Source: Halarcobacter sp. (GTDB lineage Bacteria; Campylobacterota; Campylobacteria; Campylobacterales; Arcobacteraceae). From it: DNA of 64,000 nucleotides. A program made the translations under genes and the position numbers. Positions 8,504 to 44,718 of the stretch are shown piece by piece. Position 1 is the stretch's first letter, and each line of letters begins with the position of its first letter. The notes beneath the pieces were generated by a model that saw only the letters and a program-made list of their open reading frames with translations, was not told the origin of the DNA and made no database searches. The stretch spans positions 3,540,373 to 3,604,372 of the forward strand of contig CP182352.1 in the NCBI GenBank assembly GCA_048571215.1. Direction: 5' to 3'.

Positions 8504-8528
8504 CTTTAATTATAATCAAAATACTAGT

Positions 8529-8617: not shown

Positions 8618-8677
8618 CTATATATAAATCATCTAACTTTTTTTAAATTTTAAATGATTTACTCAAAACTTTTTGTT

Positions 8678-8753
8678 GGAGCTATAGCAAAGCTGGTAAT
8701 GCCTCGGATTGCAAATCCGATATGCGTTGGTTCGAGTCCGACTAGCTCCTCCA
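8678..8753 (+). tRNA. tRNA-Cys (anticodon GCA)
   Basis: Acceptor GGAGCTA/TAGCTCC, anticodon stem TCGGA/TCCGA with loop TTGCAAA, GGTTCGAGTCC TPsiC arm, encoded CCA. Confidence 0.9.
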
Positions 8754-10895: not shown

Positions 10896-10933
10896 AAAAA
10901 GGGCTCATCTGTAAAAGATGAGCCCTTTTTTTT
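10896..10933. terminator. Orphan bidirectional rho-independent terminator in a 456-bp intergenic region
   Basis: A5, then GGGCTCATCT-GTAAA-AGATGAGCCC, then T8. This is a perfect 10-bp GC-containing stem, and no annotated ORF ends nearby. Confidence 0.6.
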
Positions 10934-12449: not shown

Positions 12450-15400
12450 ATGGGAAAAGAGGTAGGGTACATAAAAGAGATTATTTTAAAAGTAAGGGAA
12501 TCCCTATCTTTTGGAAGCACTTTTTCAATATCAAATCAAGAACAATTGGCTTATAATCCAAAAATATCTCAAGTTTATATAACTTTATTTCAAGAGGGAT
12601 TAAAGCCAATACGTTGGGGTTCAAGAAAAAAAACACTTGAAGAGTCAATTCAAAGAATTATTTTTAAGCTTAAAACTAATTCTAATTTTTATAATTTTAA
12701 TATAAGTGAAAATACAAAATGTAGAATTTTGTTTGAGATGGTTACTAAAGAGTATCCTTGTAATATTAGAAATTTAACTACAATGAATATGGATTCGCCA
12801 AATAGATTTGAATCAGGAGTAAATGGTTTAAAGTATAAATATAATGCACAAACAAGATTTTTTATGCCAACTGATGGATATACAAAATCGATTATGAGTG
12901 TAAATCAGCTTTTGAATTATTTATCAAAACAGTGTGGGATATCAAAAAAAACAAATAAGATTAGTGAACGGGTTCATTTAATGAGAAGAGAGCCAATTGA
13001 GTACACTTTTATAGAATCTATAGCCTTTATAACTTATGGTGACGAAGTGTTAAAACTTGAAAGAGGCTATCCTTTACCTATTGATTTTAATAAAGATATA
13101 ATTTATGACAAGATGATGAAAAGTGTTGATTGGTTAATAAAAAATATGAATAATGATGGTAGTTTTTTATACTATTATGATCCATATAAAGACACAATTG
13201 TAGATGATATGCATCCTAAGATGATAAACCCTTTATATAACAATATATTAAGACATAGTGGAGGAACAATCTCTTTATTAAGAGCTTATGAATTAAGTGA
13301 TAATAAAATTTATTTACAAAAAGCAAAAGAGTCTATAGAGTTTTTAATAACTACATTTAAAGAACATCAATATAATAATCAGTATGCTTGTTTCCCATTT
13401 TTTAATAAAAAATCAAAATTAGGTGGTGCAGGGATTGGTTTAGTAGCAATGATGCACTATTATATGCATACAAAAGATGAAAGTTATAGAAAATATTTAG
13501 ATGGTCTTGTAAGACATATTTTAAGTAGAGTTGATGAAAGTGGAGAGCTAATTGGTTATTATATTCATCCCCAATTTAATGAGGGAAAACCTTTAATAAA
13601 TCCAAGTGATGAAGTTAAGAAAAATTTATTTTCTTTCTATTATCCTGGGGAAGCACTTTTAGGTCTTGCTTTATATTATCTTTATATTGATAACATTGAT
13701 GAAGAGTTGAAGAGTGATATAAAAGAAAAGAGTGAAAAAGCCTTAGACTTTTTAGTTGATATTAGACCTATAAAATATGATTATATGTTTGATACACTAC
13801 CCGCTGATGCTTGGCTTATGCAAGCGATTGAAGAGTGGGTTAAAGTTGATGGTTTAAAAAAACAAAGCTATATTGATTTTGTTTTTAATGATACTAAGCA
13901 GATGTTTGAACATATGTATAAAGAAGAGAACACTTTAGCAACAAATAAAGACTATATAGGTGGATTTTATTATGAATATGGTGATCATGTTTATCATGAT
14001 GCATCGAGATGTGAAGGGGTTGTTAGCGCCTACTATTTAGCAAAATATTTAAAAGATGAAAATAAAGCTTCTTGGATAATGGAAAATATGATCTTAAGTG
14101 CAAAGGGTTTAATGAAAACATTTCATGATGAAAAATCTGTTTATGCCCATATAAATCCAGAAAAAGCGCTTCATAGTTTTAGATTTAAACTCACAAGACA
14201 GTGGGTTAGGGTTGATTCAGTTCAACACGCTTCATGTTTTTTTGCTAGATTAATCCCTGTTTTTGATGACAAAAAAAAATTAGATAATAATATATTAAAT
14301 AAATATGAGATTGTAGATACTATTGATAAAGCAGGGTATAGTACCGTGTATCTAGTAAAAGACAAGTCATCAAAGCTTTTTGCTATGAAGAAAATAGAAC
14401 AAACCAGATATTTAAGATTAATAGAAAATGAGATTAAATTTTTAAGAGTTTTAAATGAATTTAACAGTTTAAAATTTATTGAAGTTATAAAAAATGGTGA
14501 AGAGCTTTATTTAATATTTGATTATGCAGAAGCTGGAAATTTAAAAAAACATGTTGAAAAAAATGCAGTTTTATCAGATGAAGAAACTTTTGAGTATTTG
14601 AAGCAGATGTTAGAAGTTTTGAATTTTATTAATCAAAAAGGGATTTTGCATTTAGATTTGAAACCTGCAAATACCTTAATTTATAATAAAAAGTTTATTT
14701 TGGCTGATTGGGGTAATGCGGAAAAAACAAGAGTATCAAAAAGTGTACATCTAAAAGGAAATCCAATCTATATTGCTCCAGAGTTTTATTGGGGGGAAAG
14801 AACTATCTCCTCAGAGATTTATTCTTTAGGTTGCTCTTTATATTTTTTATTAACAGGTAAACATATTTACAGTTTACGAAATAGATATTCATTACTTCAA
14901 AAGATATATTCAAGTTTATATTTTCATGCAGATTTATCTGAAATAAAATCAAATAAGATGAAATATATTTTGGGTAGAATGTTAGAAAAAGAGCCTCAAA
15001 AAAGAATCGGTTTAGATGAATTAAATAAAGAGTTAAAAAAAGATGAAAGTGCTTTTGAAGATTTTTTATATATAAAATATAAAAATGAACAAGTAGATTT
15101 TTCAGATGAGGAAAAACTTTATGATAAAATGTTAAAAGATAATATTCCTTTTTTATTTAATGAAAAAGGCAGATTGTTTATAAAACAAGGTGAATTTCAA
15201 AAAGCTTATGAGATGTTTGAAAAAGGTGCAAAGGCGGGATATGTAAATGCACAATTAAATCTTGCATTGATGCATTATAATAAAAAATATGAGATCCTAG
15301 ATTTAAAAAAGGCATTTTATTGGATAGAAAAAGCTTCACAAGTTGAATATGACAAGGCTCAATATTTTATGGGAATATTTTACGAAAATGGTCTATATGT

Positions 15401-15518
15401 AGATAAAGATTTAGAAAAAGCTATTTTTTGGTTTAAAAAATCTGCACGAAATGCATATAGAAAAGCTTATACAAAACTGGATAAGTACAATATTAAATTG
15501 GAGGTAAATTTAAAATGA
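12450..15518 (+). CDS. Multidomain protein: AMMECR1-like N-terminus, alpha/alpha-toroid-like middle, Hanks-type Ser/Thr kinase, C-terminal Sel1/TPR repeats
   Basis: Kinase motifs LFAMKKI, HLDLKPANTL, LADWGNA, IYIAPEF. Sel1-like repeats (GYVNAQLNLALMHY, YDKAQYFMGIFYENG). The N-terminal calls rest on weaker pattern matches (VYITLFQEG..IRWGS; GGAGIGLVAMMHYY; YYPGEALLGLALYY). Confidence 0.6.
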   Translation: MGKEVGYIKEIILKVRESLSFGSTFSISNQEQLAYNPKISQVYITLFQEGLKPIRWGSRKKTLEESIQRIIFKLKTNSNFYNFNISENTKCRILFEMVTKEYPCNIRNLTTMNMDSPNRFESGVNGLKYKYNAQTRFFMPTDGYTKSIMSVNQLLNYLSKQCGISKKTNKISERVHLMRREPIEYTFIESIAFITYGDEVLKLERGYPLPIDFNKDIIYDKMMKSVDWLIKNMNNDGSFLYYYDPYKDTIVDDMHPKMINPLYNNILRHSGGTISLLRAYELSDNKIYLQKAKESIEFLITTFKEHQYNNQYACFPFFNKKSKLGGAGIGLVAMMHYYMHTKDESYRKYLDGLVRHILSRVDESGELIGYYIHPQFNEGKPLINPSDEVKKNLFSFYYPGEALLGLALYYLYIDNIDEELKSDIKEKSEKALDFLVDIRPIKYDYMFDTLPADAWLMQAIEEWVKVDGLKKQSYIDFVFNDTKQMFEHMYKEENTLATNKDYIGGFYYEYGDHVYHDASRCEGVVSAYYLAKYLKDENKASWIMENMILSAKGLMKTFHDEKSVYAHINPEKALHSFRFKLTRQWVRVDSVQHASCFFARLIPVFDDKKKLDNNILNKYEIVDTIDKAGYSTVYLVKDKSSKLFAMKKIEQTRYLRLIENEIKFLRVLNEFNSLKFIEVIKNGEELYLIFDYAEAGNLKKHVEKNAVLSDEETFEYLKQMLEVLNFINQKGILHLDLKPANTLIYNKKFILADWGNAEKTRVSKSVHLKGNPIYIAPEFYWGERTISSEIYSLGCSLYFLLTGKHIYSLRNRYSLLQKIYSSLYFHADLSEIKSNKMKYILGRMLEKEPQKRIGLDELNKELKKDESAFEDFLYIKYKNEQVDFSDEEKLYDKMLKDNIPFLFNEKGRLFIKQGEFQKAYEMFEKGAKAGYVNAQLNLALMHYNKKYEILDLKKAFYWIEKASQVEYDKAQYFMGIFYENGLYVDKDLEKAIFWFKKSARNAYRKAYTKLDKYNIKLEVNLK

Positions 15519-16480
15519 AAACTTTTTTTTTAATTCTATTATTAACTATTTCTTTAAATGCAGGATGGAAAACACAAAGGGAAAATCTTGATAAGGTTTA
15601 TATTTTAGGAGATTTTAGAGTTTTTTATACTTTAAAAGGAAAGGATGCCCTTCCTAGAAAAAATAGAGTGGATTTAAATAAAAACTCTATTCCTGATTAT
15701 GTAGAAAATATTGCACAAAGATTAAATGTAACAAAAGAACTTTATACAAAAATATTGGGGTTTCAAGATCCTCTAAAATCAAAAAGATATAGAGGGGTAA
15801 AATATATTGATATACATATTTTAAATTCAAAACATAGTTCATCAGGAGATGCTGTTGTAACTTTTAACTATAAAATTTTAGATAAAGAAGATGAAGTTAT
15901 AAGTATGAAAATAAGAAACAATCTTGATAAAGATACTTTAACTCCTTCCCATGAATATTTTCACTTGCTTCAAAATAGTTATAGTATGTTTAAAAATAGA
16001 TGGTATACAGAAGGTACTGCAAGATGGTCTGAAAGAGTATTTAAAAAAGGTACTGGTAAAAGAGGAATATTACCCCAAAATTCAAGATCTTTAGATGTAT
16101 TATTAGATATGACATATGATGCAAAGGGATTTTGGAGAAAATTAGCTTACCTTTGTGATACAAATAATGGGAGTTTTGTAAATAGTCTAAATCTTAAAAC
16201 AGATGTACCAAATTATCCAAACTTGATAGAAGACAGAAGGATTTATGGTTATGAATTTATAAGAGTCTTTTTAGAAAATTTGGACAAACAAGATAATATT
16301 GTTTCTAAAAAAAGAGGTTATGGTGAGTTTGATTGGAGTGAAAAAAATCAAAAATATAATGAAGACAACAACAAGTATATTTTAAAAGCTGTAGTTGATA
16401 CTATAAATACAGTTTGTCCAAAAACAAATCAAGAGATAAACAATTTTAAAATTGTTGCAAAAGATTATATTAGAAGATAA
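15515..16480 (+). CDS. Secreted protein with HExxH motif (putative zinc metallopeptidase)
   Basis: Signal peptide MKTFFLILLLTISLNAG. HEYFH motif followed by WYTEGTARW. Start overlaps the upstream stop (ATGA). Confidence 0.4.
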   Translation: MKTFFLILLLTISLNAGWKTQRENLDKVYILGDFRVFYTLKGKDALPRKNRVDLNKNSIPDYVENIAQRLNVTKELYTKILGFQDPLKSKRYRGVKYIDIHILNSKHSSSGDAVVTFNYKILDKEDEVISMKIRNNLDKDTLTPSHEYFHLLQNSYSMFKNRWYTEGTARWSERVFKKGTGKRGILPQNSRSLDVLLDMTYDAKGFWRKLAYLCDTNNGSFVNSLNLKTDVPNYPNLIEDRRIYGYEFIRVFLENLDKQDNIVSKKRGYGEFDWSEKNQKYNEDNNKYILKAVVDTINTVCPKTNQEINNFKIVAKDYIRR

Positions 16481-18882
16481 TGGAAAATAAATTACTATTT
16501 TCATTAAAAGAGATTGAATCTATTACAGGTGGTAAATGGGTTAATTTTGATGAAAAATTAGTTATAGATGAGTTTGTCCATCTACTACCACATATAAAAG
16601 ACGGGGATCTTTTTATTGTACATTATGCAAATTGGTATAATAAAAAAACAGATAATGAAAAGGATATTCCAAGAGCTATTAAAAAAGGTGCTCGTGCTTT
16701 AATGGTTCAAAAACAAACTGATATATCAAATTTATCTATGCCTGTTTTAGTAGTAGATGACACTTATTATGCCTTAAAAAATTTAGCTTTGTATGCATCC
16801 GAAAAAGCAAGTTCAAAACGAGTTGTTATCACAGGAAGTTATGGAAAAACAGGTTTCAAAAATCACTTATATCATTTGATAAAAGATAAAACAAAAGTAT
16901 TTGCAAGACTTAGTAGTTCAAATAGAGTTGCTTCAACCTATGGAAACTTAGCTTCCCTAAAAAAAGATACAGAAGTTTTATTAGTTGAAATCCCTATTAG
17001 TACTAGAAATAAAACACAAAGACGAGCAGGTTATGTTAGACCTGATATTTGTGTTATAACTTCAATTGGGCATGAACATATAGAAAGACATGCTAGTGTA
17101 AATAATATTATAAAAAAGAAGTGTTCTATTGCTGGAACTTTGCCAGAAGAAGGAAAAATAATTGTACCTAGTGATGGAGAATATAGTGATCTTATAAAAA
17201 AAGAGTTAAGAAAATATGAAGATATAGAGGTTTTAACTTTTGGATATAAAGATAATTGTAATGCTCAGTTATTAAGTGTATGGTACGAGAATTATAGATA
17301 TAAGGTGATTGCTAGAATTGAAGAGGAACTTGTGCAATATGAAGTTCCTTTTGTAGATGATCATGCACCTCTTAGTTCAATATGTGAATTATTGTGTATA
17401 AAACACTTAGGTTTTGATATATATGAATGTGCAAAAAATTATAAAAATATTAAAAATTTTAGAAGTAGTGGGAATTTATATAAATTAGAATATAAAGAAA
17501 AAACCTTTTATCTGTATGACCATAGTAGAAGGGGTGGAGTAGAAGGGTACCGTTCTTTTTTGAAAACAATTAAAAAGATTAATCCTAAGGGAAAAGGAAG
17601 AAAAATATTTGTTACTTCTGAGTTTGTAGATATTCAAGATGGTGAAGAGAAGTTTATAGATAAAAATGAGTTTAAACAATTGATTGAAGAAGCATCAATT
17701 GATCAGTTTTATACAGTAGAAAATTTTAAAGCTGTTCATGAAGATTTAATAAGTGATAAAAAAAAGTGGATACAACACTCTTTAAAAGTTGAAGATTTAA
17801 GAGAAAATTTTCTTAATAATATTCATGAGGGAGATGTTATTTGTATAAAAGCTATATTTGAAAGCTCTCTTCAGCTACTTAGTAAAGATATTTTACACAA
17901 TTCAGAAATATTAAACTCTCAGCAAGAATATAATACAAAGGTTGATTTATTAAAAAACTGTAGGATAATTGATACAAAATATATGGAAAGATTTTATTCT
18001 ATAATGGACAATGCAAAAAAAGAGAATTGGGTTAATTATTTTCCTTTTTTATATACCTTCTCTGCCTCAAAAAGTAGAAAAATTTTACTAAATTTTGAAG
18101 ATGATGTAATGAGTGTTTATTTTTTAAGACATCTAAACAGTAGAAGAAGAGAACCTTTTTTACAATTGTATTTTATACCTATACCTTTTAGTTCTCAAAA
18201 GTTAAAAAAAGCATTAACCTTAGTTAAAGAGTTTAATCATGCATCTTCAAATACAATTCTTTGGTGTGATGCAGAGGATATAAAAAGAGTTAGAGAAAAT
18301 AAAGAATTTGATAAGGTAATAAAATTTAGATATAAGGAGTCTGAGTTTATATATTCTCCACAAAATTATGAAACTTTATCAGGTAGTAAATACAAATATT
18401 TAAGACGACAAATAGGATGGATAAATGCTTTAAAAGATGTAAAAGTAACCTCTTATAAAAAAGAGCATTTAAAAGACTGTTTATCTTTATATGATGATTG
18501 GAAAAAAACTCAAGGTCTTAAATATGAATCTATAGAAGATGAATCTTATACAAAACTTTGTCTTTATCATAGTTTTGATTTTCCTAAAGAGATATTAGAT
18601 GGAATAGTGGTCTTAATAGATAATCAGGTTAAATCTTTTGCTTTTTATGGAAAAATCACAAATGAAATATCAAATATGTTTATTGCAAAAAGTGACCATA
18701 GTATAAGAGGTTTGCAAGTTTTTACAAATTATCAAATATTATTAAGATTAGAAGATTACAAATATGCAAATGCTTCAGGAGGAGATTTAAGTAAAGGTTT
18801 ATACGAATCCAAAAAAAAATTCAGACCTTCAAAAATGCATAAAATTTATAAAGGGGCTGTTAAATTTAGTTTTTTTAGATAA
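16480..18882 (+). CDS. MurF-type Mur ligase fused to a DUF2156 (MprF C-terminal, aminoacyl-tRNA transferase-like) domain
   Basis: Residues 1-~480: P-loop ITGSYGKTGFKN, VITSIGHEHI, and the same length and ends as the two stand-alone paralogs. Residues ~500-800: LSGSKYKYLRRQI...LSLYDDWKK pattern typical of DUF2156. TAATG overlap with the upstream gene. Confidence 0.6.
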   Translation: MENKLLFSLKEIESITGGKWVNFDEKLVIDEFVHLLPHIKDGDLFIVHYANWYNKKTDNEKDIPRAIKKGARALMVQKQTDISNLSMPVLVVDDTYYALKNLALYASEKASSKRVVITGSYGKTGFKNHLYHLIKDKTKVFARLSSSNRVASTYGNLASLKKDTEVLLVEIPISTRNKTQRRAGYVRPDICVITSIGHEHIERHASVNNIIKKKCSIAGTLPEEGKIIVPSDGEYSDLIKKELRKYEDIEVLTFGYKDNCNAQLLSVWYENYRYKVIARIEEELVQYEVPFVDDHAPLSSICELLCIKHLGFDIYECAKNYKNIKNFRSSGNLYKLEYKEKTFYLYDHSRRGGVEGYRSFLKTIKKINPKGKGRKIFVTSEFVDIQDGEEKFIDKNEFKQLIEEASIDQFYTVENFKAVHEDLISDKKKWIQHSLKVEDLRENFLNNIHEGDVICIKAIFESSLQLLSKDILHNSEILNSQQEYNTKVDLLKNCRIIDTKYMERFYSIMDNAKKENWVNYFPFLYTFSASKSRKILLNFEDDVMSVYFLRHLNSRRREPFLQLYFIPIPFSSQKLKKALTLVKEFNHASSNTILWCDAEDIKRVRENKEFDKVIKFRYKESEFIYSPQNYETLSGSKYKYLRRQIGWINALKDVKVTSYKKEHLKDCLSLYDDWKKTQGLKYESIEDESYTKLCLYHSFDFPKEILDGIVVLIDNQVKSFAFYGKITNEISNMFIAKSDHSIRGLQVFTNYQILLRLEDYKYANASGGDLSKGLYESKKKFRPSKMHKIYKGAVKFSFFR

Positions 18883-18910
18883 TATTTAAATATTAAATAA
18901 GAGGATATGT

Positions 18911-20359
18911 ATGATTGTATTAAATAATAGTGAAATTGAAGAAGCAACAAAAGGGACTTGGATAAATAAAATTGATGAATTAGATATAAAAAGAGTAATA
19001 TTTAGTAGTACAAAAATTCAAAATTCAGATTTTTATTTCCCATACAATCAAGAAAAATTTCTAGAAGACAGTGAAGAAAATATCAATTTAATAAATAGAG
19101 TATTTAAAAAAGGTGCTATTGCTATAGCTTTACCTAAAAATTCCAAAATAAAAATTGACAAACCAACCCTTCTTGTTGATCATTTAAGAGATTCTTTTAG
19201 AGATTTAGCATTAGCTTCTACTAATAAAACCCAAGCAACAAAAATTTTAGTAACTGGTTCCTATGGAAAAACAGGATTTAAAAATCAACTTTATACTTTG
19301 ATAAATGAGTTTAAAAACACTTTTACTTTTTTAGATTCTGCAAATAAAAGTCTTCCTATATATAAAACTTTAAGTTCAATTCCTAGTGATTGTGAAGTTG
19401 CTATAGTTGAAGTTGCTGCTCCTGGCTATGAGATATCAAAAAAAAGAGCCAATTATGTGAAACCAGATATTGCAGTTATAACAAATATTGGGCCTGAACA
19501 TTTAAGACAACATGGTGGTAGTATTGAAAATGTTATTGAGAATAAATCAAGAGTTGCATATGGACTTAAAGATAATGGTTTGATAATAATTCCTAACCAA
19601 AAAGAATATAATACAAAAGAAAAAATGACTAAGTATATCCATGAGATAAACCCTACACTAGAAATATTGAGTTTTGGAGAAGATAGTGATAATAATGCAT
19701 ATATTTTAGAAAAAAACTTTTTAGATGTAGGATGGAATTTAAAAATAAAAATAAATGATAAAGAAATAGATTTTACACTACCTTTTTTAGAAGAGTATTC
19801 AGTAAAAGCAACTTTACCTATTTTATTAGTTTGTGATTACTTAGATTTAGATTTAAAGCAGATTGTTACAAAATATAAAAACTATACACACTTTGCAAGT
19901 AGTGGAAACTTTTATAAGGTAACTTCATATGAAAAAACCTTTTATCTTTATGATCAAAGTATTAGGGGAATATTAGATGGATTCAAAGAGACTTTAAAAG
20001 TAATTAGTCAAATGAAACCTCAAAAAAAGGGAAAGAAAATAGCACTTTTTTCTGAGTTTATAAATTTTGATGAGAGTTCGGTTGATGTTGTTAATTTGGA
20101 TGAGTTTAAACTTTTGTTTAAAAATTCAGGTTTAAAATCATTATTTACAATCAATAAGTTTTGTGAGCATATAAATGTATTGCATGATAAATCAATATGG
20201 AAAGAGCATAGATTTAGTATAAATGATATTATGGATAAAGTTATAGCTGATATAGAAGATGATGATATGCTTTTTATTCGTGCGACTCAAGAAAGTAAAG
20301 CAGACACTTTAGTAAAAAATATCTTGGATAATGCAAGTAGTGTAGAACAATATTATTAA
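18911..20359 (+). CDS. Divergent MurF-type Mur ligase family protein (paralog 2)
   Basis: VTGSYGKTGFKNQ P-loop, VITNIGPEHLRQHG, YLYDQSIRG in place of the canonical DxSYNANP. Confidence 0.7.
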   Translation: MIVLNNSEIEEATKGTWINKIDELDIKRVIFSSTKIQNSDFYFPYNQEKFLEDSEENINLINRVFKKGAIAIALPKNSKIKIDKPTLLVDHLRDSFRDLALASTNKTQATKILVTGSYGKTGFKNQLYTLINEFKNTFTFLDSANKSLPIYKTLSSIPSDCEVAIVEVAAPGYEISKKRANYVKPDIAVITNIGPEHLRQHGGSIENVIENKSRVAYGLKDNGLIIIPNQKEYNTKEKMTKYIHEINPTLEILSFGEDSDNNAYILEKNFLDVGWNLKIKINDKEIDFTLPFLEEYSVKATLPILLVCDYLDLDLKQIVTKYKNYTHFASSGNFYKVTSYEKTFYLYDQSIRGILDGFKETLKVISQMKPQKKGKKIALFSEFINFDESSVDVVNLDEFKLLFKNSGLKSLFTINKFCEHINVLHDKSIWKEHRFSINDIMDKVIADIEDDDMLFIRATQESKADTLVKNILDNASSVEQYY

Positions 20360-20377
20360 AATAGATGTGGAATTAAG

Positions 20378-21133
20378 ATGATTAATATAATAACAAACCC
20401 TTTTTTAAAAAAAAGATATTTTTCCGACTTTTCAAATGAATATATTATAAAAAGTAATACTAGTTTGAGTGGAGCAATTTTATTAATGTTTAGTCTAACA
20501 GTAGTTTCATTTGTATTCTTTTGGATATTTTCAAATGAACTACTTATAAACAGTACTCCTATAGCTATAGAAAATGTAAAGAATTTTTCTTTTGTAAGTG
20601 GAGTGATCTCTTTTATTATAGCTTTTTTTGCATATTATAAGCCAGGATTATCTCCAATCTTAGCACCCTTATATGCAGTTTTTTCGGGTATTTTTATCTC
20701 AGGTCTGAGTTTTGCTGCAGAACAAAAGTTTCCAGGTATTGCAATGCTAACTGCTGAAGTTACTTTAACAACTTTTATTATTGTTTATATTGGATATAAG
20801 ATTGGTATTATTAAAGTAACACAAAAATTTAAATCTATAGTTTATTCACTTATTGGGATTATATCATTTTTGTATTTATTGAGTTTCATCTTAATGCTTT
20901 TTAATACCACTATCCCTTTGATTCACGAAGCAGGTATAGGTGGAGTAATATGGACTTTTTTTATTATGGCTACAGCTTCATTTCATCTTGCAATAGATAT
21001 AGATAAGGTAGAAAAATCTAATACTAACAAAGGGTATGAAAACTGGAACTTAGCTTTAGGATTAATGGTATCTTTGATATGGCTTTATTTTTCAACTTTA
21101 AGATTTTTATCTCGAATTAAGAGTCTAAAATAG
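20378..21133 (+). CDS. Polytopic membrane protein, Bax-inhibitor-1-like (Bax1-I_2-type)
   Basis: About 7 predicted TM helices. N-terminal NPFLKKRYF resembles the SNPxL start of BI-1-like proteins. Confidence 0.4.
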   Translation: MINIITNPFLKKRYFSDFSNEYIIKSNTSLSGAILLMFSLTVVSFVFFWIFSNELLINSTPIAIENVKNFSFVSGVISFIIAFFAYYKPGLSPILAPLYAVFSGIFISGLSFAAEQKFPGIAMLTAEVTLTTFIIVYIGYKIGIIKVTQKFKSIVYSLIGIISFLYLLSFILMLFNTTIPLIHEAGIGGVIWTFFIMATASFHLAIDIDKVEKSNTNKGYENWNLALGLMVSLIWLYFSTLRFLSRIKSLK

Positions 21134-21210
21134 GGATTTGAAATGAAATATTTTAAGCTAATATAGGGAATTTTTTGGTATTATTATTGGCAAAAGAGGG
21201 ATATTAAAAT

Positions 21211-22914: not shown

Positions 22915-22938
22915 GTAAGAAAGGATAAAATAAAAATT

Positions 22939-23889: not shown

Positions 23890-23895
23890 TCAAAC

Positions 23896-25575: not shown

Positions 25576-25609
25576 GTAAATCAAGAAGATAAAAAAGGAG
25601 AACTGTAAT

Positions 25610-27415: not shown

Positions 27416-27446
27416 AAATTATTAAAATTTTGCTAAAGGTTAATCA

Positions 27447-28898: not shown

Positions 28899-29964
28899 TA
28901 ATGTAGATATTTTCTTTTTAGGAGATACGTATTTTGGCGAATGGCATATGAGACTTCGTGGAAGAAAAGGGCAGTCTAATATTTTAGAGGAAAAAGGTTA
29001 TTTACATTTTGGTAAAAATTTTGAAGAAATACTAAGTGATGGTGATGAGGTTCTTATGAATTTAGAATGTACTATTACCGAAATAGAACCATCACCTTTG
29101 AAAGGTACTGAAAAAAAACATCTTTATTCTGCAAGAGCAGAAGGAACAATTTCAGCACTTAAAAAGTTAAATATAACCACATGTATTTTAGCAAATAATC
29201 ATGCGGTAGATTATGGTAAGGCTGGACTTATTGATACTATTACAAATTTAGAAGAAGCTGGTATTAAATATATTGGAGGAGGTAGAAATGAAGCAGAAGC
29301 AGCGGCTCCACTAATATTTCAAAAAAAACTAGGTGATAAAAAATTCAAAGCAGCTATAGTATCAACATACAATTATGGTGTAGCATCTGATAGATATGGA
29401 TTTTATGCAAAGGGTGATATCCCAGGAGTTAATAGAAAAAATTTATCAAAAATTACAGAACAAATTAAAAAAATAAAAGCAAAAGACAATGATATAATGT
29501 ATATTTTGTCTCCCCATTGGGGACCAAATTATGTATGGAGAACTTTTACTCAACAAAAACAAGGTGAAGAATTTATAAGATCAGGTGTTGATTTAATAGT
29601 TGGACATAGTGCCCATATGATTCAGGAAGTTGAATATTATAAAGATAGACTTATAATATATAGTATAGGTAATTTTCTTATAAATGGTAATGGTGAATAT
29701 AAAAGAAGAAGATTGCCACCTTATAGTTTTATAGCAAGATTGAATGTGCAAAATATTGATAATACTTTTGTTAAAAAGATCTATTTATATCCTATATTTG
29801 TTGATAATATGGCAAGTGATTTTACCCCTAGATTTGTAGATAAAAAAGAGTTTATTCATGTAAAAGATATATTAAGAAGTCATGAAATAAGTACAGATAT
29901 ATTTGATAATACAGTAATTTTAGGTCAAGATAAGTTTGGATATTTTTTAGAATATGAAATTTAA
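28885..29964 (+). CDS. CapA/PgsA-family (PGA_cap, metallophosphatase-fold) protein, no obvious membrane anchor
   Basis: FLGDTYFGEW, MNLECTIT, LANNHAVDYGKAGL, SPHWGPNY, VGHSAHMIQEVE, YSIGNFL. Start moved from 28852 to Met12 (ATG 28885), which follows GGAGAA and gives a 14-nt overlap with the upstream gene. Confidence 0.75.
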   Translation: MRSDDNVDIFFLGDTYFGEWHMRLRGRKGQSNILEEKGYLHFGKNFEEILSDGDEVLMNLECTITEIEPSPLKGTEKKHLYSARAEGTISALKKLNITTCILANNHAVDYGKAGLIDTITNLEEAGIKYIGGGRNEAEAAAPLIFQKKLGDKKFKAAIVSTYNYGVASDRYGFYAKGDIPGVNRKNLSKITEQIKKIKAKDNDIMYILSPHWGPNYVWRTFTQQKQGEEFIRSGVDLIVGHSAHMIQEVEYYKDRLIIYSIGNFLINGNGEYKRRRLPPYSFIARLNVQNIDNTFVKKIYLYPIFVDNMASDFTPRFVDKKEFIHVKDILRSHEISTDIFDNTVILGQDKFGYFLEYEI

Positions 29965-30037
29965 TTAAAAAGCAACTTTTAGGCAACTTTTATAATTTAT
30001 AATTAGAAAGATAAGAGTCTATAGTAAGGAATACAAG

Positions 30038-33000
30038 ATGATTAAGCTAATAATTAGACACACAAATGCTGAGATTGAAGAAAAAGTTGTTGAAGATGGT
30101 ATGAAGTTTCAACCATTGGAAGGTGAACAATTCTACTTCATAGGTTCTGATGGTTATACATTTACTTTATCAGGGAATGAATCTACAGTAAATCTTTCTT
30201 TAATGGATGGTAATGAAAGAGTTAGTGTAAGTCTTGATAACATGGCAGATTTAATAAAAGCTAATAATCCTGGAGATGCATTTGCTTTAACTACAGCACT
30301 AGGGGTGTCTTCAACTCCGGATGGTGCAGCTGAAATAGAACAAGCATTAGCAGACCCAAATTTAGAATCAGCACAAATTATAGATGTATTAAAAGAGAAT
30401 TTATCAGAAAGTACTGTTGCAGAAAATGATGGTGCAATTATTGATAACTTTGGTTCATTGGCAGAAGCTCTTGATGCAGCTGCAGCAGGTGCAATACAGA
30501 GTGATCCGACTTTATTTATAGACGAAACTAGAGGGCAAGAAGAAACTCCAGCAGATACGGAGAGAGGTGAACGAATCGAGACTGATACCGACACGGATAC
30601 TGATACAGATACAGATACTGACACGGATACAGATACCGATACTGATACCGACACAGATACGGACACGGACACAGATACAGACACGGATACTGATACAGAC
30701 ACTGACACAGACACTGATACAGATACTGACACGGATACAGATACCGACACAGACACTGATACAGATACTGATACCGACACCGACACTGACACCGATACTG
30801 ATACAGACACAGATACAGACACGGACACAGACACGGACACAGACACGGACACAGACACGGATACAGACACGGATACCGATACCGACACTGACACCGATAC
30901 TGATACAGACACCGATACAGATACTGATACAGACACTGATACAGACACTGATACCGACACAGACACGGATACAGATACTGATACCGACACTGACACAGAC
31001 ACTGATACAGATACAGACACCGATACTGATACTGATACCGATACTGACACAGACACGGATACAGATACTGATACCGATACTGATACCGACACGGATACAG
31101 ATACTGATACCGATACTGATACCGACACGGATACTGACACAGACACCGATACAGACACTGATACAGATACAGACACCGATACTGATACTGATACCGACAC
31201 AGATACTGACACAGACACGGATACAGATACTGATACCGACACGGATACAGATACTGATACTGACACGGATACAGACACCGATACTGATACCGATACCGAC
31301 ACTGATACCGATACAGACACAGATACAGATACTGACACAGACACTGATACTGATACAGACACTGATACTGATACTGATACCGACACGGATACAGATACGG
31401 ACACTGACACAGACACGGACACGGACACTGATACAGATACTGACACAGACACTGATACCGACACGGATACAGACACGGATACAGATACGGATACAGATAC
31501 TGATACTGATACAGATACTGACACGGATACAGATACCGACACGGACACAGACACTGATACAGATACTGACACGGACACTGATACAGATACTGACACAGAC
31601 ACTGATACAGATACAGATACAGATACCGACACTGACACAGATACAGATACAGATACTGATACAGATACAGATACAGATACTGATACAGACACGGATACAG
31701 ATACTGATACCGACACGGATACAGACACGGATACAGATACAGACACGGATACAGATACTGATACTGATACAGATACTGACACGGATACAGATACCGACAC
31801 GGACACAGACACTGATACAGATACTGACACGGATACAGATACTGATACCGACACTGACACAGATACAGACACCGATACTGATACAGACTCTGATTCAGAC
31901 AGTGATACCGATTCGGATTCAGACTCTGACACCGATAGTGATAGTGACTCAGACACTGATTCAGATACCGACAGTGATAGTGATTCAGACACAGACTCTG
32001 ACTCAGACAGTGATACGGATTCTGATAGTGACTCAGATTCTGATTCGGATAGTGATTCAGACTCAGATAGTGACTCTGATTCAGATACTGACACGGATAC
32101 GGACACAGATACCGACACAGACACTGATACGGACGCAGACACTGACACAGACACTGACACGGATACAGATACAGATACGGACACAGACTCTGACTCAGAT
32201 AGCGATACCGATAGTGATAGTGACTCAGACACAGACAGTGATACAGATTCAGACACAGATTCGGATAGCGACTCAGATACAGACTCTGATTCAGACAGTG
32301 ATACCGATTCGGATTCAGACTCTGACACCGATAGTGATAGTGACTCAGACACTGATTCAGATACCGACAGTGATAGTGATTCAGACACAGACTCTGACTC
32401 AGACAGTGATACGGATTCTGATAGTGACTCAGATTCTGATTCGGATAGTGATTCAGACTCAGATAGTGACTCTGATTCAGATACTGACACGGATACGGAC
32501 ACAGATACCGACACAGACACTGATACTGATACGGACACAGACACTGATACCGACACAGACACTGATACGGACACAGACACTGATACCGACACAGACACGG
32601 ATACCGATACTGATACGGACACAGATACGGACACAGACACTGATACAGACACAGACACTGACACGGATACAGATACAGATACGGACACAGACTCTGACTC
32701 AGATAGCGATACCGATAGTGATAGTGACTCAGACACAGACAGTGATACAGATTCAGACACAGATTCGGATAGCGACTCAGATACAGACTCTGATTCAGAC
32801 AGTGATACCGATTCGGATTCAGACTCTGACACCGATAGTGATAGTGACTCAGACACTGATTCAGATACCGACAGTGATAGTGATTCAGACACAGACTCTG
32901 ACTCAGACAGTGATACGGATTCTGATAGTGACTCAGATTCTGATTCGGATAGTGATTCAGACTCAGATAGTGACTCTGATTCAGATACTGACACGGATAC

Positions 33001-36000
33001 GGACACAGATACCGACACAGACACTGATACTGATACGGACACAGACACTGATACCGACACAGACACTGATACTGATACTGATACGGACACAGACACTGAT
33101 ACCGACACAGACACGGATACCGATACTGATACGGACACAGACACTGATACGGACACAGACACTGATACAGACACAGACACGGATACAGATACGGACACAG
33201 ACTCTGACTCAGATAGTGATAGTGACTCAGACACAGACAGTGATACAGATTCAGACACAGATTCGGATAGCGACTCAGATACAGACTCTGATTCAGACAG
33301 TGATACCGATTCGGATTCAGACTCTGACACCGATAGTGATAGTGACTCAGACACTGATTCAGATACCGACAGTGACAGTGATTCAGACACAGACTCTGAC
33401 TCAGACAGTGATACGGATTCTGATAGTGACTCAGATTCTGATTCGGATAGTGATTCAGACTCAGATAGTGACTCTGATTCAGATACTGACACGGATACGG
33501 ACACAGATACCGACACAGACACTGATACTGATACTGATACGGACACAGACACTGATACCGACACAGACACTGATACTGATACTGATACGGACACAGACAC
33601 TGATACCGACACAGACACGGATACCGATACTGATACGGACACAGACACTGATACGGACACAGACACTGATACAGACACAGACACGGATACAGATACGGAC
33701 ACAGACTCTGACTCAGATAGTGATAGTGACTCAGACACAGACAGTGATACAGATTCAGACACAGATTCGGATAGCGACTCAGATACAGACTCTGATTCAG
33801 ACAGTGATACCGATTCGGATTCAGACTCTGACACCGATAGTGATAGTGACTCAGACACTGATTCAGATACCGACAGTGATAGTGATTCAGACACAGACTC
33901 TGACTCAGACAGTGATACGGATTCTGATAGTGACTCAGATTCTGATTCGGATAGTGATTCAGACTCAGATAGTGACTCTGATTCAGATACTGACACGGAT
34001 ACGGACACAGATACCGACACAGACACTGATACTGATACGGACACAGATACTGATACTGATACGGACACAGACACTGATACCGACACAGACACTGATACCG
34101 ACACAGACACTGATACCGACACAGACACGGATACCGATACTGATACGGACACAGATACGGACACAGACACTGATACAGACACAGACACTGACACGGATAC
34201 AGATACAGATACAGATACGGACACAGACTCTGACTCAGATAGCGATACCGATAGTGATAGTGACTCAGACACAGACAGTGATACAGATTCAGACACAGAT
34301 TCGGATAGCGACTCAGATACAGACTCTGATTCAGACAGTGATACCGATTCGGATTCAGACTCTGACACCGATAGTGATAGTGACTCAGACACTGATTCAG
34401 ATACCGACAGTGACAGTGATTCAGACACAGACTCTGACTCAGACAGTGATACGGATTCTGATAGTGACTCAGATTCTGATTCGGATAGTGATTCAGACTC
34501 AGATAGTGACTCTGATTCAGATACTGACACGGATACGGACACAGATACCGACACAGACACTGATACTGATACTGATACTGATACGGACACAGACACTGAT
34601 ACCGACACAGACACTGATACTGATACTGATACGGACACAGACACTGATACCGACACAGACACGGATACCGATACTGATACGGACACAGACACTGATACGG
34701 ACACAGACACTGATACAGACACAGACACGGATACAGATACGGACACAGACTCTGACTCAGATAGTGATAGTGACTCAGACACAGACAGTGATACAGATTC
34801 AGACACAGATTCGGATAGCGACTCAGATACAGACTCTGATTCAGACAGTGATACCGATTCGGATTCAGACTCTGACACCGATAGTGATAGTGACTCAGAC
34901 ACTGATTCAGATACCGACAGTGATAGTGATTCAGACACAGACTCTGACTCAGACAGTGATACGGATTCTGATAGTGACTCAGATTCTGATTCGGATAGTG
35001 ATTCAGACTCAGATAGTGACTCTGATTCAGATACTGACACGGATACGGACACAGATACCGACACAGACACTGATACTGATACGGACACAGATACTGATAC
35101 TGATACGGACACAGACACTGATACCGACACAGACACTGATACCGACACAGACACTGATACGGACACAGACACTGATACCGACACAGACACGGATACCGAT
35201 ACTGATACGGACACAGATACGGACACAGACACTGATACAGACACAGACACTGACACGGATACAGATACAGATACGGACACAGACTCTGACTCAGATAGCG
35301 ATACCGATAGTGATAGTGACTCAGACACAGACAGTGATACAGATTCAGACACAGATTCGGATAGCGACTCAGATACAGACTCTGATTCAGACAGTGATAC
35401 CGATTCGGATTCAGACTCTGACACCGATAGTGATAGTGACTCAGACACTGATTCAGATACCGACAGTGATAGTGATTCAGACACAGACTCTGACTCAGAC
35501 AGTGATACGGATTCTGATAGTGACTCAGATTCTGATTCGGATAGTGATTCAGACTCAGATAGTGACTCTGATTCAGATACTGACACGGATACGGACACAG
35601 ATACCGACACAGACACTGATACTGATACGGACACAGACACTGATACCGACACAGACACTGATACTGATACTGATACGGACACAGACACTGATACCGACAC
35701 AGACACGGATACCGATACTGATACGGACACAGACACTGATACGGACACAGACACTGATACAGACACAGACACGGATACAGATACGGACACAGACTCTGAC
35801 TCAGATAGTGATAGTGACTCAGACACAGACAGTGATACAGATTCAGACACAGATTCGGATAGCGACTCAGATACAGACTCTGATTCAGACAGTGATACCG
35901 ATTCGGATTCAGACTCTGACACCGATAGTGATAGTGACTCAGACACTGATTCAGATACCGACAGTGACAGTGATTCAGACACAGACTCTGACTCAGACAG

Positions 36001-37729
36001 TGATACGGATTCTGATACCGATTCAGATTCAGATAGTGACACCGATTCTGATAGCGATAGTGACACAGATTCAGATTGTGATACAGATGTTGATGCAGAT
36101 AAACCAATTGCAGATATTGAAGTTGAGTATGAAAAAACAGTTACCGTAAATGAAGTTTGTTCTACTTCACAAAATCTAGGTAATTTAGCTGCTTATTTAG
36201 ATGGTATGAATAATGTAAATGCAAATGAAGTTGTTGATTTAGCAAAAGATCAAAATGGTAACCCACAACAAGATCAATACAACTTAGAATTGACTTCATT
36301 TGGAGATGGAGATTTAGCATTATATGATAATGAATCTAATCAAAATGAAACTAGAGATATCAATGATATTGATTTAAATGATGTTACACCATTTGATCCA
36401 TCAAATGCAGAAGTAGTAAATAACACCATAAATCATACATACAATATGACATCAAATGAAGTTATTTTTGAAGGTGATATTGTTCAAAATGGTAATGTAA
36501 TAGGAACATCAGACAATGATGTGATTATTGTAAAAGGTGAGGTTCAAGGTGGTTCAAATGTTAATGCAGGTGCTGGAAATGACCTTATTGCAATAGTAGG
36601 AAATATTGGAGAAAATCAACCAGCAATTGATGGGGATAGTGGTACAGACATACTATATCTAAGTAAACCTGCATCTAATTATGAGTTTTTAGATATCCAC
36701 TTCCATGACAATTTAGATGGACATATTTTAGATAAAGAGACTCAAAGTGTATTAACATTTAATAACATAGAAGGAATTGCCTTTGGTGATGGTTCTGGGG
36801 TAAATTGTAAAGTAAATACATCAACAAGCTATCAATACAATGTAAGTATAAGTGCTGCATTAACTGATATTGATGGAAGTGAAACTTTATCTGTAGCAAT
36901 ATCTGGAGTGCCAAATGGTGCTACACTATCAAGTGATACCTATACATTAATTGATAATGGAAATGGAAATTGGACAGTTGAAGTACCAAATGGAGATGTA
37001 TCTATAGTTGATGATATTACTATGAATGTTCCATCAGATATAGGAGATTTTAACCTTGAAATAACAGCAAGAGCAACTGAAATCAATGATAATGATGGTA
37101 CTGATTATGCAGAAACAACAGATAGTGATTTTGTAACTGATGATATCGATCCAGATACAGAAATCAATAAATTTGACTTAGTAGGAAATGTAACTACTGG
37201 TTCAGGAGATGATACAATTAATGTGTCAGATGATATATTCTTAGCTAATGTTGATACTGGAGCAGGAGATGATACAATCAATGTAGGAGATGATATAGGA
37301 TTATTTACTTCAATAGATACCGGAGCAGGAGATGATACAATTAATATTGGTGACAATATTAGTTATTCAGCTCAAATTGATATGGGTGATGGTATTGATA
37401 CCCTAAGTTTAGATGATGATATTGATTTATCTGATATAGCAAAAAATGTTGATAATGTTGAAATAATTGATTTGGATAATGATGAAGACCAAGATCTAGA
37501 AATAGATTTAGATTCAATTATCGATTTAACTGATGATGATAATGATTTAGTTGTTATTGGTGATAATGGTGACAAAATTGACTTTAATGATTCTGGTTGG
37601 GAAAAAGGCGATAGCACAAAAACTGTTGATGGACAAGATGGAGAGTTTACTGAATACACAAATACAAACAATCCAAATGTATCAATTTTAATTGATAATG
37701 ACATTGACGTAGATGATGATGACATTTAA
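30038..37729 (+). CDS. Giant T1SS substrate: LapA-like N-terminal module, 1840-aa (Thr/Ser)-Asp dipeptide array, C-terminal RTX-like/acidic secretion region
   Basis: RBS AAGGAA upstream. N-terminal 181 aa non-repetitive. Residues 182-2021 alternate X-Asp. The C-terminal 542 aa carry [16 protein letters not shown], 3x TGAGDDTIN(V/I)GD repeats and the acidic tail [10 protein letters not shown]1SS genes lie downstream. Confidence 0.85.
30581..36100 (+). repeat. Coding hexanucleotide-period array (GAY + ACN/TCN/AGY), 920 dipeptide units, with roughly 0.5-kb higher-order repeats
   Basis: Direct reading. Higher-order unit starts at 32186, 32690, 33200, 33704, 34226, 34748, 35282 and 35792, with a truncated first Ser-rich block at 31886. 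Confidence 0.95.
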
Positions 37730-37736
37730 AAAAACT

Positions 37737-37770
37737 ATATAAGATAGCATTTCGCTATCTTATATTTTAT
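37737..37770 (+). terminator. Rho-independent terminator after the giant gene
   Basis: ATATAAGATAGC-ATTTC-GCTATCTTATAT (12-bp perfect stem) followed by TTTAT, 8 nt after the stop codon. Confidence 0.7.
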
Positions 37771-44708: not shown

Positions 44709-44718
44709 AGGAAATAAC

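Follow-up and report, generated by a model that had tools for sequence, protein, structure and literature searches.

The DNA considered here is a stretch of 64,000 nucleotides (nt) from Halarcobacter sp. (GenBank assembly GCA_048571215.1, contig CP182352.1, positions 3,540,373 to 3,604,372), referred to throughout as the window, in which the gene of a giant secreted protein with a (Thr/Ser)-Asp dipeptide repeat follows a cluster of eleven genes for, among others, a protein with an (alpha/alpha)6 'six-hairpin' barrel, a Fic protein of the AnkX type and three MurF-like Mur ligases. Genes for X-Asp repeat proteins lie beside such genes in several lineages, and we consider it very probable that the enzyme set is functionally linked to X-Asp repeat proteins. 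Most likely the enzymes modify or service the repeat protein by a chemistry that is new for any protein, and in our judgement the chances that the repeat protein is their covalent substrate are about even. A search of the literature, which covered subscription journals in part, returned no description of the gene combination or of the modification of a Gram-negative X-Asp repeat protein, and the partnership of X-Asp repeat proteins with six-hairpin domains, often together with modules of AnkX-type Fic proteins and Mur ligases, appears to be undescribed.

The repeat protein

Residues 182–2021 of the giant protein (nt 30581–36100) consist of exactly 920 X-Asp dipeptides, the number already given in the initial annotation of this DNA, with Thr in 592, Ser in 324, Ala in 2 and Cys and Val in 1 each of the X positions. 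The whole protein contains 1076 Asp and Glu as compared to 24 Lys and Arg residues. Neither end gives any family match in Pfam or NCBIfam, and the C-terminal region is 66% identical to a Halarcobacter homolog (P0152). Close to the C-terminus a 60-nt tandem repeat (37195–37345) encodes three units of 20 amino acids (aa) that resemble a calcium-binding repeat and match no RTX or other Pfam model. The open reading frames (ORFs) of about 1900 aa that overlie the dipeptide repeat at 30154–36066 (-), 30528–36107 (-) and 30567–36149 (+) are by-products of the underlying GAYACN repeat and not genes.

The giant protein adds to an established type of protein, the X-Asp repeat adhesins secreted by type I systems, which is represented by BapA of Paracoccus denitrificans. 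BapA has more than 2000 aa with (Asp-Ala)891 between non-repeat ends, its gene adjoins the type I secretion genes BapBCD and no enzyme cluster is reported next to it, the protein was detected in cell-envelope protein fractions and it is needed for calcium-stimulated biofilm formation (PMC5588039). Compared by architecture, both proteins have hundreds of consecutive X-Asp dipeptides between non-repeat termini and are encoded beside type I secretion genes; they differ in that the Thr/Ser-Asp repeat of the window carries a hydroxyl on every second residue, whereas BapA is built from Asp-Ala.

X-Asp repeats and their partners in other genomes

How consistently do the enzyme genes accompany such repeats? 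Genome and metagenome loci (given here as L numbers) were gathered by a search anchored on the Fic gene with flanks of 10 kb, within which X-Asp ORFs were sought in six frames. X-Asp repeat genes adjoin clusters of AnkX-type Fic and MurF-like genes in the window, L005, L048, L102/L103, L011 and L012/L013, that is in four lineages including Campylobacterota, a Francisella-like genome and Burkholderiales, and in L005, L011, L012 and L013 the X-Asp ORF is found on the same strand directly beside the cluster. In Sulfurimonas (L005) the repeat gene lies upstream of the cluster and adjacency is kept although the enzyme order differs; the Francisella-like genome (L011) has Ser-Asp repeats, L012 belongs to the Comamonadaceae, and L013 to the Burkholderiales, with more than 530 dipeptides. 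All four of these contigs stop inside the repeat, where short-read assemblies are expected to break.

A complete Halarcobacter genome (L102/L103) has the same island, with a gene order shared as far as the downstream transketolase gene. It encodes an Ank-OmpA protein, the six-hairpin protein, a Fic-MurF fusion, a further MurF, a 569-aa protein, PGA_cap, an aminotransferase, a nucleotidyltransferase and a Thr-Asp giant of more than 3500 aa, followed by a 657-aa ORF, a histidine kinase, a response regulator, TolC, ABC transporter, HlyD, Ank-OmpA and transketolase. As ATP-grasp genes and the kinase are both absent from this otherwise identical island, they are regarded as accessory. The 657-aa ORF is 66% identical to the C-terminal region of the giant of the window. 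An apparent frameshift in L102 (1–11974) splits the Thr-Asp giant into this ORF and one of at least 3533 aa, and the split may mean that the gene is a pseudogene or that its repeat undergoes phase variation, or it may stem from faulty assembly.

That the ligase/Fic cluster and the adhesin/type I locus merely lie side by side without functional meaning is disfavoured, and we regard it as very improbable. At least four lineages show the adjacency, with genes in rearranged order and contigs that break in the repeat beside the cluster, the same island is present in a complete genome, and in the six-hairpin scan described below shuffled loci gave no repeat at all. These findings stand against the AT-rich sequence with promoter-like hexamers that precedes the giant gene and the variation of the enzyme gene order between genomes, both of which would fit such a chance arrangement. 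The suggestion of the initial annotation that enzyme genes and repeat protein belong together is borne out by the X-Asp genes beside Fic/MurF-like clusters elsewhere and by the fusion of the enzyme domains in other lineages.

The Fic family is not rare and comprises 181 clusters at E <= 1e-30 among 1.84 billion representatives, and a MurF-like ligase is fused to, or starts at most 106 nt from, 22 of 36 Fic genes. In L011 six-hairpin domain, Fic and MurF are part of a single 1619-aa protein (hhalign 97.5%, E 5e-12), and other proteins combine PGA_cap, Fic and MurF (P0175), ATP-grasp, Fic and MurF, or MurF and PGA_cap (L015 and L019, where the MurF part is the ortholog of Mur ligase no. 3 of the window). 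Fusions among Fic, MurF-like, PGA_cap, ATP-grasp and six-hairpin domains indicate that the enzymes belong to one pathway. A nucleotidyltransferase gene neighbours Fic in 14 of the 24 longer loci.

Within the Fic-anchored loci X-Asp repeats were found in 5 of 24, plus L103, a low count that is partly technical owing to the 10-kb flanks; the six-hairpin gene of the window itself sits 16 kb from the repeat and thus outside such flanks. A metagenome scan with the alignment of the six-hairpin family yielded 79 loci, and in 29 of these, and in 20 of the 35 with a length of at least 10 kb, a repeat of at least 15 X-Asp dipeptides lies 0.3–6 kb from the six-hairpin gene, as compared to 0 of 79 shuffled loci. 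Thr takes up 76% of the X positions in these repeats and Ser 12%. In distant lineages, whose six-hairpin proteins are 41–47% identical to that of the window, the repeat is in several cases part of a two-partner-secretion (TPS) exoprotein and in one case of a lipoprotein-like protein; the exoproteins are composed of TPS domain, (X-Asp)n and a conserved C-terminal domain, and a gene for a ShlB/FhaC-type transporter adjoins. Since the link to the repeat persists in these proteins, the six-hairpin domain tracks the repeat and not the secretion route. It is the partner most consistently linked to X-Asp repeats.

Several details of these loci may be added. The X-Asp ORFs of L073, L078, L080, L089 and L092 have a Cys-containing motif (CPGC or similar) before the repeat and a conserved domain of about 170 aa after it (GCPALM.W...EL...QI..Y...); four of the five start with a TPS domain and L089 has a Gly-rich N-terminal region instead. 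In L080 an unannotated 541-aa gene is located between six-hairpin and exoprotein genes. Sulfurimonas gotlandica GD1 (L021) encodes type I secretion genes, a six-hairpin protein, a TPR-PGA_cap protein and a 1322-aa Thr-Asp protein (17593–21561, -) with about 356 Thr-Asp dipeptides followed by about 30 Asp-Gly-Ser-Lys units, and no Fic or ligase genes were found within 10 kb of this locus. Halarcobacter bivalviorum, which is in culture, carries part of the enzyme cluster, and a repeat gene was not seen within its 10-kb flank.

What is the six-hairpin domain? More than 1428 homologs of the family were found, most of them free-standing proteins with a length of about 600 aa and the source label 'six-hairpin glycosidase-like'; in about 17 of the 120 best homologs the domain is fused to a kinase, as in the window. 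In an AlphaFold2 model (predicted local distance difference test, pLDDT, 84.8) the barrel weakly resembles AGE-family epimerases, which are sugar epimerases, as well as GH76 and GH88 (Foldseek, E 3e-5), and the alpha/beta N-domain resembles PH0010/1vaj, which we take to be AMMECR1-like. Only the fold search was informative, as the sequence profile gave chance-level matches in the PDB (E >= 0.026). A search of a plasmid collection returned no six-hairpin match and, for Fic, only remote Legionella ones. A reading of kinase and barrel as class III/IV lanthipeptide synthetase was rejected: LanL matches at 4e-16 with 58 bits against a cutoff of 650 bits, there is no lyase domain, the top folds of the barrel are sugar epimerases and GH76/GH88 and not LanC, and the repeat contains one Cys.

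It could be imagined that the six-hairpin protein, and possibly others, act as a dedicated cytoplasmic chaperone or export escort by which an extremely acidic, cation-binding chain would stay soluble and unfolded up to its secretion, and that Fic and ligases are an unrelated inserted pathway. Such an arrangement would account for the six-hairpin protein as sole partner in most X-Asp loci (15 of the 19 longer six-hairpin loci without Fic and MurF carry the repeat gene) and for fold matches that are weak and give no catalytic assignment, and with 1076 acidic residues a handling problem in the cytoplasm is plausible. However, the domain is fused with Fic and MurF in L011 and with a kinase in the window and other homologs, the X-Asp genes of L012 and L013 adjoin Fic/MurF clusters without a six-hairpin match, and numerous polar and aromatic positions, such as occur in the active sites of enzymes, are invariant across the family. 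We therefore consider a mere escort role improbable.

Predicted chemistry of the enzymes

The Fic protein has the motif HPFVDGNIR at residue 220, of which H220, P221, D224, N226 and R228 are invariant in 16 homologs. Its AlphaFold2 model (pLDDT 91) matches AnkX in Foldseek with a query TM-score (TMq) of 0.74–0.78 and E 4e-13, while the next Fic protein follows at E 1e-2, and in phmmer residues 5–98 and 178–279 align to AnkX. It is not an AnkX ortholog, since it scores 113 bits against the 1400-bit cutoff of NF043028 and lacks ankyrin repeats. From sequence and model it is predicted to be a phosphotransferase for headgroups linked to cytidine diphosphate (CDP). Two genes downstream follows a fusion of a nucleotidyltransferase domain (PDB 6PD1 1.7e-14, LicC 1JYK 4e-12) with a pyridoxal phosphate (PLP) domain (TIGR01140 CobD 2.9e-48; PDB 6OUX, "threonine phosphate decarboxylase-like enzyme", 2e-51), and its domain content suggests that it makes a nucleoside diphosphate (NDP)-aminoalcohol, the type of donor used by an AnkX-type enzyme. 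The initial annotation had proposed nucleotidylation by the Fic protein; its AnkX type and the neighbouring nucleotidyltransferase/phospho-amino-acid decarboxylase fusion point instead to transfer of a phospho-aminoalcohol from a CDP donor. A phosphonate donor, cytidine monophosphate-aminoethylphosphonate (CMP-AEP), was rejected for this window because it contains no phosphoenolpyruvate mutase or decarboxylase gene; class V aminotransferases of other loci match an AEP transaminase model below its cutoff.

The three Mur ligases have intact P-loops (TGSYGKTG, as in the first of them, or TGTEGKTG) and score 148, 121 and 184 bits on TIGR01143, all below its cutoff of 288.6, and thus are MurF-like and not murein MurF. 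The first is fused to an LPG_synthase_C domain, a fusion that recurs in L022, L023, L029, L031, L038 and L066. Both ATP-grasp ligases are closest in their C-terminal halves to the G domain of cyanophycin synthetase and the ATP-grasp domain of GshAB (profile against PDB 1e-36; the cyanophycin synthetase entries 7LG5 and 7TA5 are matched at E 1e-20 to 1e-36), whereas their N-terminal 280–290 aa show no detectable similarity to the CphA N domain, any PDB entry or any family. The kinase carries the motifs HLDLKPAN, DWG and APE and is of the non-RD type. Ligases, Fic, kinase and PGA_cap have neither signal peptide nor membrane segment, so they should be cytoplasmic, which fits an action before type I export; among the cluster enzymes a signal peptide occurs only in the HExxH protein, homologs of which are present in 15 of the 32 loci that contain Fic. 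The BaxI_1 membrane protein gene is conserved in L005, L017 and L026.

How could these enzymes act on the repeat? A precedent for parts of the chemistry is found in the same phylum. In the HS:2 capsule of Campylobacter jejuni the PLP enzyme Cj1436 makes ethanolamine phosphate from serine phosphate, Cj1438C amidates a polymer-borne carboxylate with ethanolamine phosphate in an ATP-dependent reaction and Cj1435 removes the phosphate (PMC12409886). This system (Cj1436, Cj1437, Cj1438C, Cj1435) shares with the route proposed below for the window an aminoalcohol phosphate, ATP-dependent ligation and trimming by a phosphatase; unlike the window its acceptor is a polysaccharide glucuronate, and it has no Fic protein, no Mur ligase and no nucleotide activation of the aminoalcohol.

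While gene content, gene order, domain types and recurrence are observations, the following four steps, with the repeat as substrate, we infer from the chemistry of the families and the C. jejuni precedent (PMC12409886). In the first step the CobD-like domain would decarboxylate phospho-serine or phospho-threonine to an aminoalcohol phosphate, and the fused nucleotidyltransferase would activate this product as NDP-, probably CDP-aminoalcohol. In the second step the AnkX-type Fic protein would move the phospho-aminoalcohol onto Thr/Ser hydroxyls of the repeat, and this donor logic is coherent because the AnkX-type Fic gene sits beside that of a LicC/PntC-like nucleotidyltransferase fused to a CobD-like decarboxylase. 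In the third step the MurF-like ligases would form amides at the Asp beta-carboxylates, at the newly added amines or at both, and the genome of the window would add to these the pair of CphA-G-like ATP-grasp ligases together with the aminoacyl-tRNA transferase domain. In the fourth step PGA_cap could act as a phosphoesterase or epimerase, and additional hydroxyls may be targets of the kinase for phosphorylation. The six-hairpin domain would bind or process the repeat, in whatever manner. All cytoplasmic modification would precede type I secretion, the product would leave through the LssB-type system, and the two Ank-OmpA lipoproteins and the HExxH protein with its signal peptide would retain or process it at the envelope. 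A (Thr/Ser)-Asp polymer made on the ribosome would thereby become, in the cytoplasm, a protein-based analogue of teichoic acid, decorated with phospho-aminoalcohol and amino acids by Fic and Mur-family enzymes together with a six-hairpin protein that recognises X-Asp, and exported by type I or two-partner secretion in several phyla; no earlier case would be known of a Mur-ligase-family enzyme, or of a Fic phosphotransferase, that modifies a secreted protein of the bacterium itself. We put this forward as a tentative proposal that falls somewhat short of an even chance. By analogy, side-chain esters between Thr and Asp formed by the ATP-grasp ligases, as in graspetides, are a possible alternative chemistry, as is plain hyper-phosphorylation by the kinase, for which dentin phosphophoryn provides a case.

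A number of points weigh against decoration of the repeat by this route. The specificity of the nucleotidyltransferase and the substrate of the PLP domain are predictions, and all family scores here lie below the curated cutoffs. Canonical Mur ligases act on nucleotide-linked small molecules and not on proteins, and a heavily branched chain might not pass the type I channel. S. gotlandica and many other genomes have X-Asp proteins with the six-hairpin protein only, in some joined by PGA_cap, so that Fic and ligases are not required for such proteins. In L012/L013 about one third of the X positions are Ala, and together with the Ala of BapA this indicates that hydroxyl modification is not the universal point of the repeat. 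Furthermore, the initial annotation had held that ligase clusters without a repeat protein would speak against the connection, and both situations occur: the clusters stand beside X-Asp genes in the four lineages named, but no X-Asp gene was found within 10 kb in L001/L007 (Myxococcales), L004, L006/L019, L015/L061 and L017. A search of the X-Asp-free Fic loci for acidic low-complexity genes within the same 10 kb found none, except for a Glu/Asp-rich stretch in a trypsin-like protein of L001. The target of these clusters may be a protein without X-Asp repeats, or its gene may lie elsewhere.

Two of these loci deserve a description. In L001 (Myxococcales UBA1238, 14673–17827) the Fic/MurF/PGA_cap/ATP-grasp cluster is followed by genes for a PF11397 GlcNAc-transferase and methyltransferase protein and a GT2 glycosyltransferase, and then by that for a large surface protein of MYXO-CTERM type without X-Asp repeat; the target of the cluster may differ in this lineage. 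In the metagenome contig L015 (232–4587) polyamine genes, for arginase, Orn/Arg decarboxylases and saccharopine-dehydrogenase-like proteins, lie beside type I secretion genes and the Fic cluster, which could be a coincidence or could provide a source of amine substrate.

Alternatively, the enzymes may synthesise something distinct from the repeat protein, either a nucleotide-linked phospho-aminoalcohol peptide or a small poly-amino-acid, destined for another envelope component (lipid, lipopolysaccharide or peptidoglycan) or for release, and this product may cooperate with the polyanionic repeat protein while staying unattached, for example as a cationic receptor or anchor. Extension of nucleotide-linked carboxylates is what canonical Mur ligases do, and the nucleotidyltransferase genes near many Fic genes would fit this, as would the clusters for which the surrounding 10 kb contain no X-Asp gene. 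The aminoacylation of a membrane lipid is a known function of LPG_synthase_C domains, PGA_cap is a capsule-synthesis family, and the BaxI membrane protein is encoded inside the cluster. Yet, apart from the type I system, the island encodes no dedicated polymer exporter, and neither a glycosyltransferase nor a flippase or polymerase; the membrane anchor that PgsA possesses is missing from the PGA_cap protein of the window; those Fic enzymes for which targets are known act, as a family, on protein hydroxyls; and the partnership with X-Asp repeats is kept across different secretion routes. We regard a separate product as rather unlikely, and modification or servicing of the repeat protein remains our preferred interpretation.

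Relation to known systems

The Fic protein of the window resembles Legionella pneumophila AnkX, a phosphocholine transferase, in sequence and predicted fold, a match over all 316 aa that extends to the N-terminal region as well as to the Fic motif and its catalytic His, and a headgroup nucleotidyltransferase is encoded nearby, fitting a CDP-headgroup donor. Apart from the missing ankyrin repeats and the low family score it differs from AnkX in not being a type IV secretion effector; its headgroup is likely an aminoalcohol and not choline, and its target presumably a protein of the bacterium itself.

The comparison with cyanophycin synthetase made in the initial annotation holds for the ATP-grasp halves, which are closest to the CphA1 G domain (E about 1e-41), albeit the genes are accessory, and it does not hold for the Mur ligases, which match murF at 1e-35 to 1e-54 and the cyanophycin model at about 1e-6 or not at all. 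Both folds form amide bonds via acyl phosphates, and CphA1 acts on alpha- and beta-carboxylates of Asp. However, CphA1 is a single N-G-M polypeptide whereas the window has separate genes, and the presumed backbone would be ribosomally made. TIGR02068 gives 141 bits on the window ATP-grasp proteins against a cutoff of 850 bits and covers model positions 205–478 only. Identity as cyanophycin synthetase was rejected because ATP-grasp and Mur domains are on separate genes and the Mur ligases are not of the M-domain type. Likewise, a PgsBCA/CapBCA system was rejected, as PGA_cap is its only counterpart and lacks a hydrophobic anchor, nothing resembling PgsC was found and the ligases match murF models.

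Side chains of secreted repeat or toxin proteins can be modified by enzymes whose genes accompany that of the target or lie close to it, as by SdgA/SdgB for staphylococcal Ser-Asp repeats, HMW1C for HMW1 and HlyC for HlyA, with HMW1C and HlyC acting in the cytoplasm before export. These systems are glycosyl- or acyltransferases, and to our knowledge none of them uses Fic, Mur-ligase, ATP-grasp or six-hairpin proteins.

Layout of the island and neighbouring genes

Eleven ORFs start on the + strand at 12450, 15515, 16480, 18911, 20378, 21211, 22939, 23896, 25610, 27447 and 28852/28885 and end at 29964 (Table 1). They overlap by 4 nt at 15515 (ATGA) and 1 nt at 16480 (TAATG), and by 14 nt ahead of the PGA_cap gene if this starts at the ATG at 28885, as homolog alignments favour; the remaining gaps are 28, 18, 77, 24, 6, 34 and 31 nt, and a gap of 73 nt (29965–30037) precedes the 7692-nt giant gene. 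The overlaps and gaps given in the initial annotation all agree with this. Its statement that the gaps contain no terminator up to 37737 likewise stands, since a scan of the intergenic gaps between 10930 and 37737 found no terminator-like site. Strong terminator-like hairpins lie only at the two edges of this interval, and weak + strand matches at 14789 and 17027 are intragenic; 7 terminator-like matches were observed versus 3.4 expected by chance. A promoter scan was uninformative in sequence of about 26% G+C, the content of the whole window (133 sites versus 138 expected).

Because the first Ank-OmpA lipoprotein gene ends 15 nt upstream of the 12450 gene and lies 3' of the upstream terminator, the transcription unit probably starts with this gene at 11103. 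An Ank-OmpA gene also precedes the six-hairpin gene in the Halarcobacter loci L022 and L103 and in L023. Histidine kinase and second Ank-OmpA gene hold the same positions in the Halarcobacter island, where the protein in place of the 251-aa lipoprotein-like protein carries WG_beta_rep. We consider it an evenly balanced proposition that 11103–46824 is a single island whose genes serve to make, service and export a polyanionic (Thr/Ser)-Asp repeat protein of surface or matrix. The initial annotation had recognised Mur ligases, ATP-grasp enzymes, PGA_cap, kinase, Fic protein and nucleotidyltransferase-PLP fusion; it missed or under-read the AnkX type, the CobD-like identity, the six-hairpin domain and the start at 11103, and left the genes at 15515 and 20378 off its list of enzymes.

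Table 1. Features of the island and the evidence on which their assignment is based
Feature	Coordinates	Strand	Evidence
Strong terminator-like hairpin, upstream island edge	10896–10930	+	15-bp stem, 6 GC pairs, T run
Ank + Big_13 + OmpA lipoprotein no. 1	11103–12434	+	Pfam Ank_2 3e-33, OmpA 1.6e-8; lipoprotein-like N-terminus
AMMECR1-like N-domain + (alpha/alpha)6 'six-hairpin' barrel, first 610 aa of 1022-aa protein	12450–14279	+	Homologs, AlphaFold2, Foldseek
Non-RD Hanks-type Ser/Thr kinase + Sel1 repeats, C-terminal part of 1022-aa protein	14280–15518	+	Pkinase 1.9e-39 (residues 620–860), Sel1 9e-10
HExxH protein (MXAN_6640-like putative metalloprotease), signal peptide	15515–16480	+	NF045524 3.3e-15; HEYFH motif; signal-like N-terminus
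MurF-like Mur ligase (no. 1) fused to LPG_synthase_C (aminoacyl-tRNA-dependent transferase type)	16480–18882	+	Mur_ligase_M 2e-22, LPG_synthase_C 8e-10, murF 3.5e-43
MurF-like Mur ligase no. 2	18911–20359	+	Mur_ligase_M 1.3e-22; murF subfamily 4.6e-35, 121 bits
BaxI_1 family seven-helix membrane protein	20378–21133	+	PF12811 7e-40; seven hydrophobic segments
ATP-grasp ligase no. 1, CphA-G/GshB-like C-terminal half	21211–22914	+	TIGR02068 4.5e-41 (model 205–471); PDB 7LG5 1.5e-20
AnkX-type Fic protein, 316 aa	22939–23889	+	NF043028 1.7e-32 (positions 7–302); AnkX PDB 2e-27
ATP-grasp ligase no. 2, paralog of no. 1 (45% identity)	23896–25575	+	TIGR02068 2.5e-41
LicC/PntC-like nucleotidyltransferase + CobD-like PLP enzyme (phospho-Ser/Thr decarboxylase type)	25610–27415	+	NTP_transf_3 1e-11, Aminotran_1_2 4e-30
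MurF-like Mur ligase no. 3	27447–28898	+	murF subfamily 3.6e-54, 184 bits
PGA_cap (CapA/PgsA-family, metallophosphoesterase-type fold) protein	28885–29964	+	PF09587 3.3e-51; no hydrophobic segment or membrane anchor
Giant secreted protein, 2563 aa	30038–37729	+	N-terminal 181 aa, 920 X-Asp dipeptides, C-terminal region of about 540 aa
Terminator-like hairpin 3' of giant gene	37737–37765	+	12–13 bp stem, then T run
Histidine kinase, cytoplasmic, no sensor domain found	37782–38594	+	HATPase_c 1e-18
OmpR-type response regulator	38578–39270	-	Response_reg 3e-22, Trans_reg_C 9e-16
Type I secretion: TolC-like	39380–41221	+	TIGR01844 7e-48
Type I secretion: LssB-type ABC transporter with C39-like domain	41233–43362	+	TIGR03375 1.8e-247, 823 bits, above cutoff of 693
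Type I secretion: HlyD	43365–44708	+	TIGR01843 9e-113
Ank + OmpA lipoprotein no. 2	44698–46056	+	Ank_2 1e-19, OmpA 7.5e-10
251-aa lipoprotein-like protein, last gene before terminator	46069–46824	+	Lipoprotein-like N-terminus
Terminator after 251-aa lipoprotein-like gene	46830–46861		

The flanks of the island consist of housekeeping and unrelated genes, namely ilvD, an HtrA-like protease, three tRNAs, a Cache/HD protein, transketolase and arsenic-resistance genes. The three consecutive + strand tRNA genes (8417–8750), located between ilvD and the Cache/HD gene, were the only hits of an Rfam scan of the whole window, and the island has no riboswitch. Just upstream of the island and divergent from it, 8835–10646 (-) encodes a Cache sensor with an HD_5 (HD-GYP-like) domain; the protein may regulate the adhesin locus as a cyclic-di-GMP phosphodiesterase. 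The arsenic-resistance genes ArsB and ArsP and the gene for a 1171-aa fusion of major facilitator superfamily (MFS) transporter, acyltransferase and AMP-binding domains, of the type for re-acylation of lysophospholipids, occupy 49105–52457 and 55586–59101. The closest relatives of the window sequences are Campylobacterota, the best named ones being Halarcobacter, Poseidonibacter and Sulfurimonas with 75–80% identity.

Implications

If the enzymes act on the repeat protein, families known from cell-wall precursor synthesis (Mur ligases), from cyanophycin and from a host-targeting effector of Legionella (AnkX) would provide a new chemistry of protein modification, and the AnkX-type Fic fold would gain a housekeeping or ancestral context in free-living bacteria. 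The large six-hairpin family, with more than 1400 detected homologs, is identified as a dedicated partner of X-Asp repeats, and the partnership offers an explanation for the purpose and handling of X-Asp dipeptide-repeat surface proteins such as BapA. These ideas are testable in cultured strains, in H. bivalviorum for part of the cluster and in S. gotlandica GD1 for the minimal version of six-hairpin, PGA_cap and Thr-Asp protein. Surface polymers of tunable charge could matter for the binding of metals and minerals and for biofilms of sulfur-oxidising and methane-oxidising bacteria.

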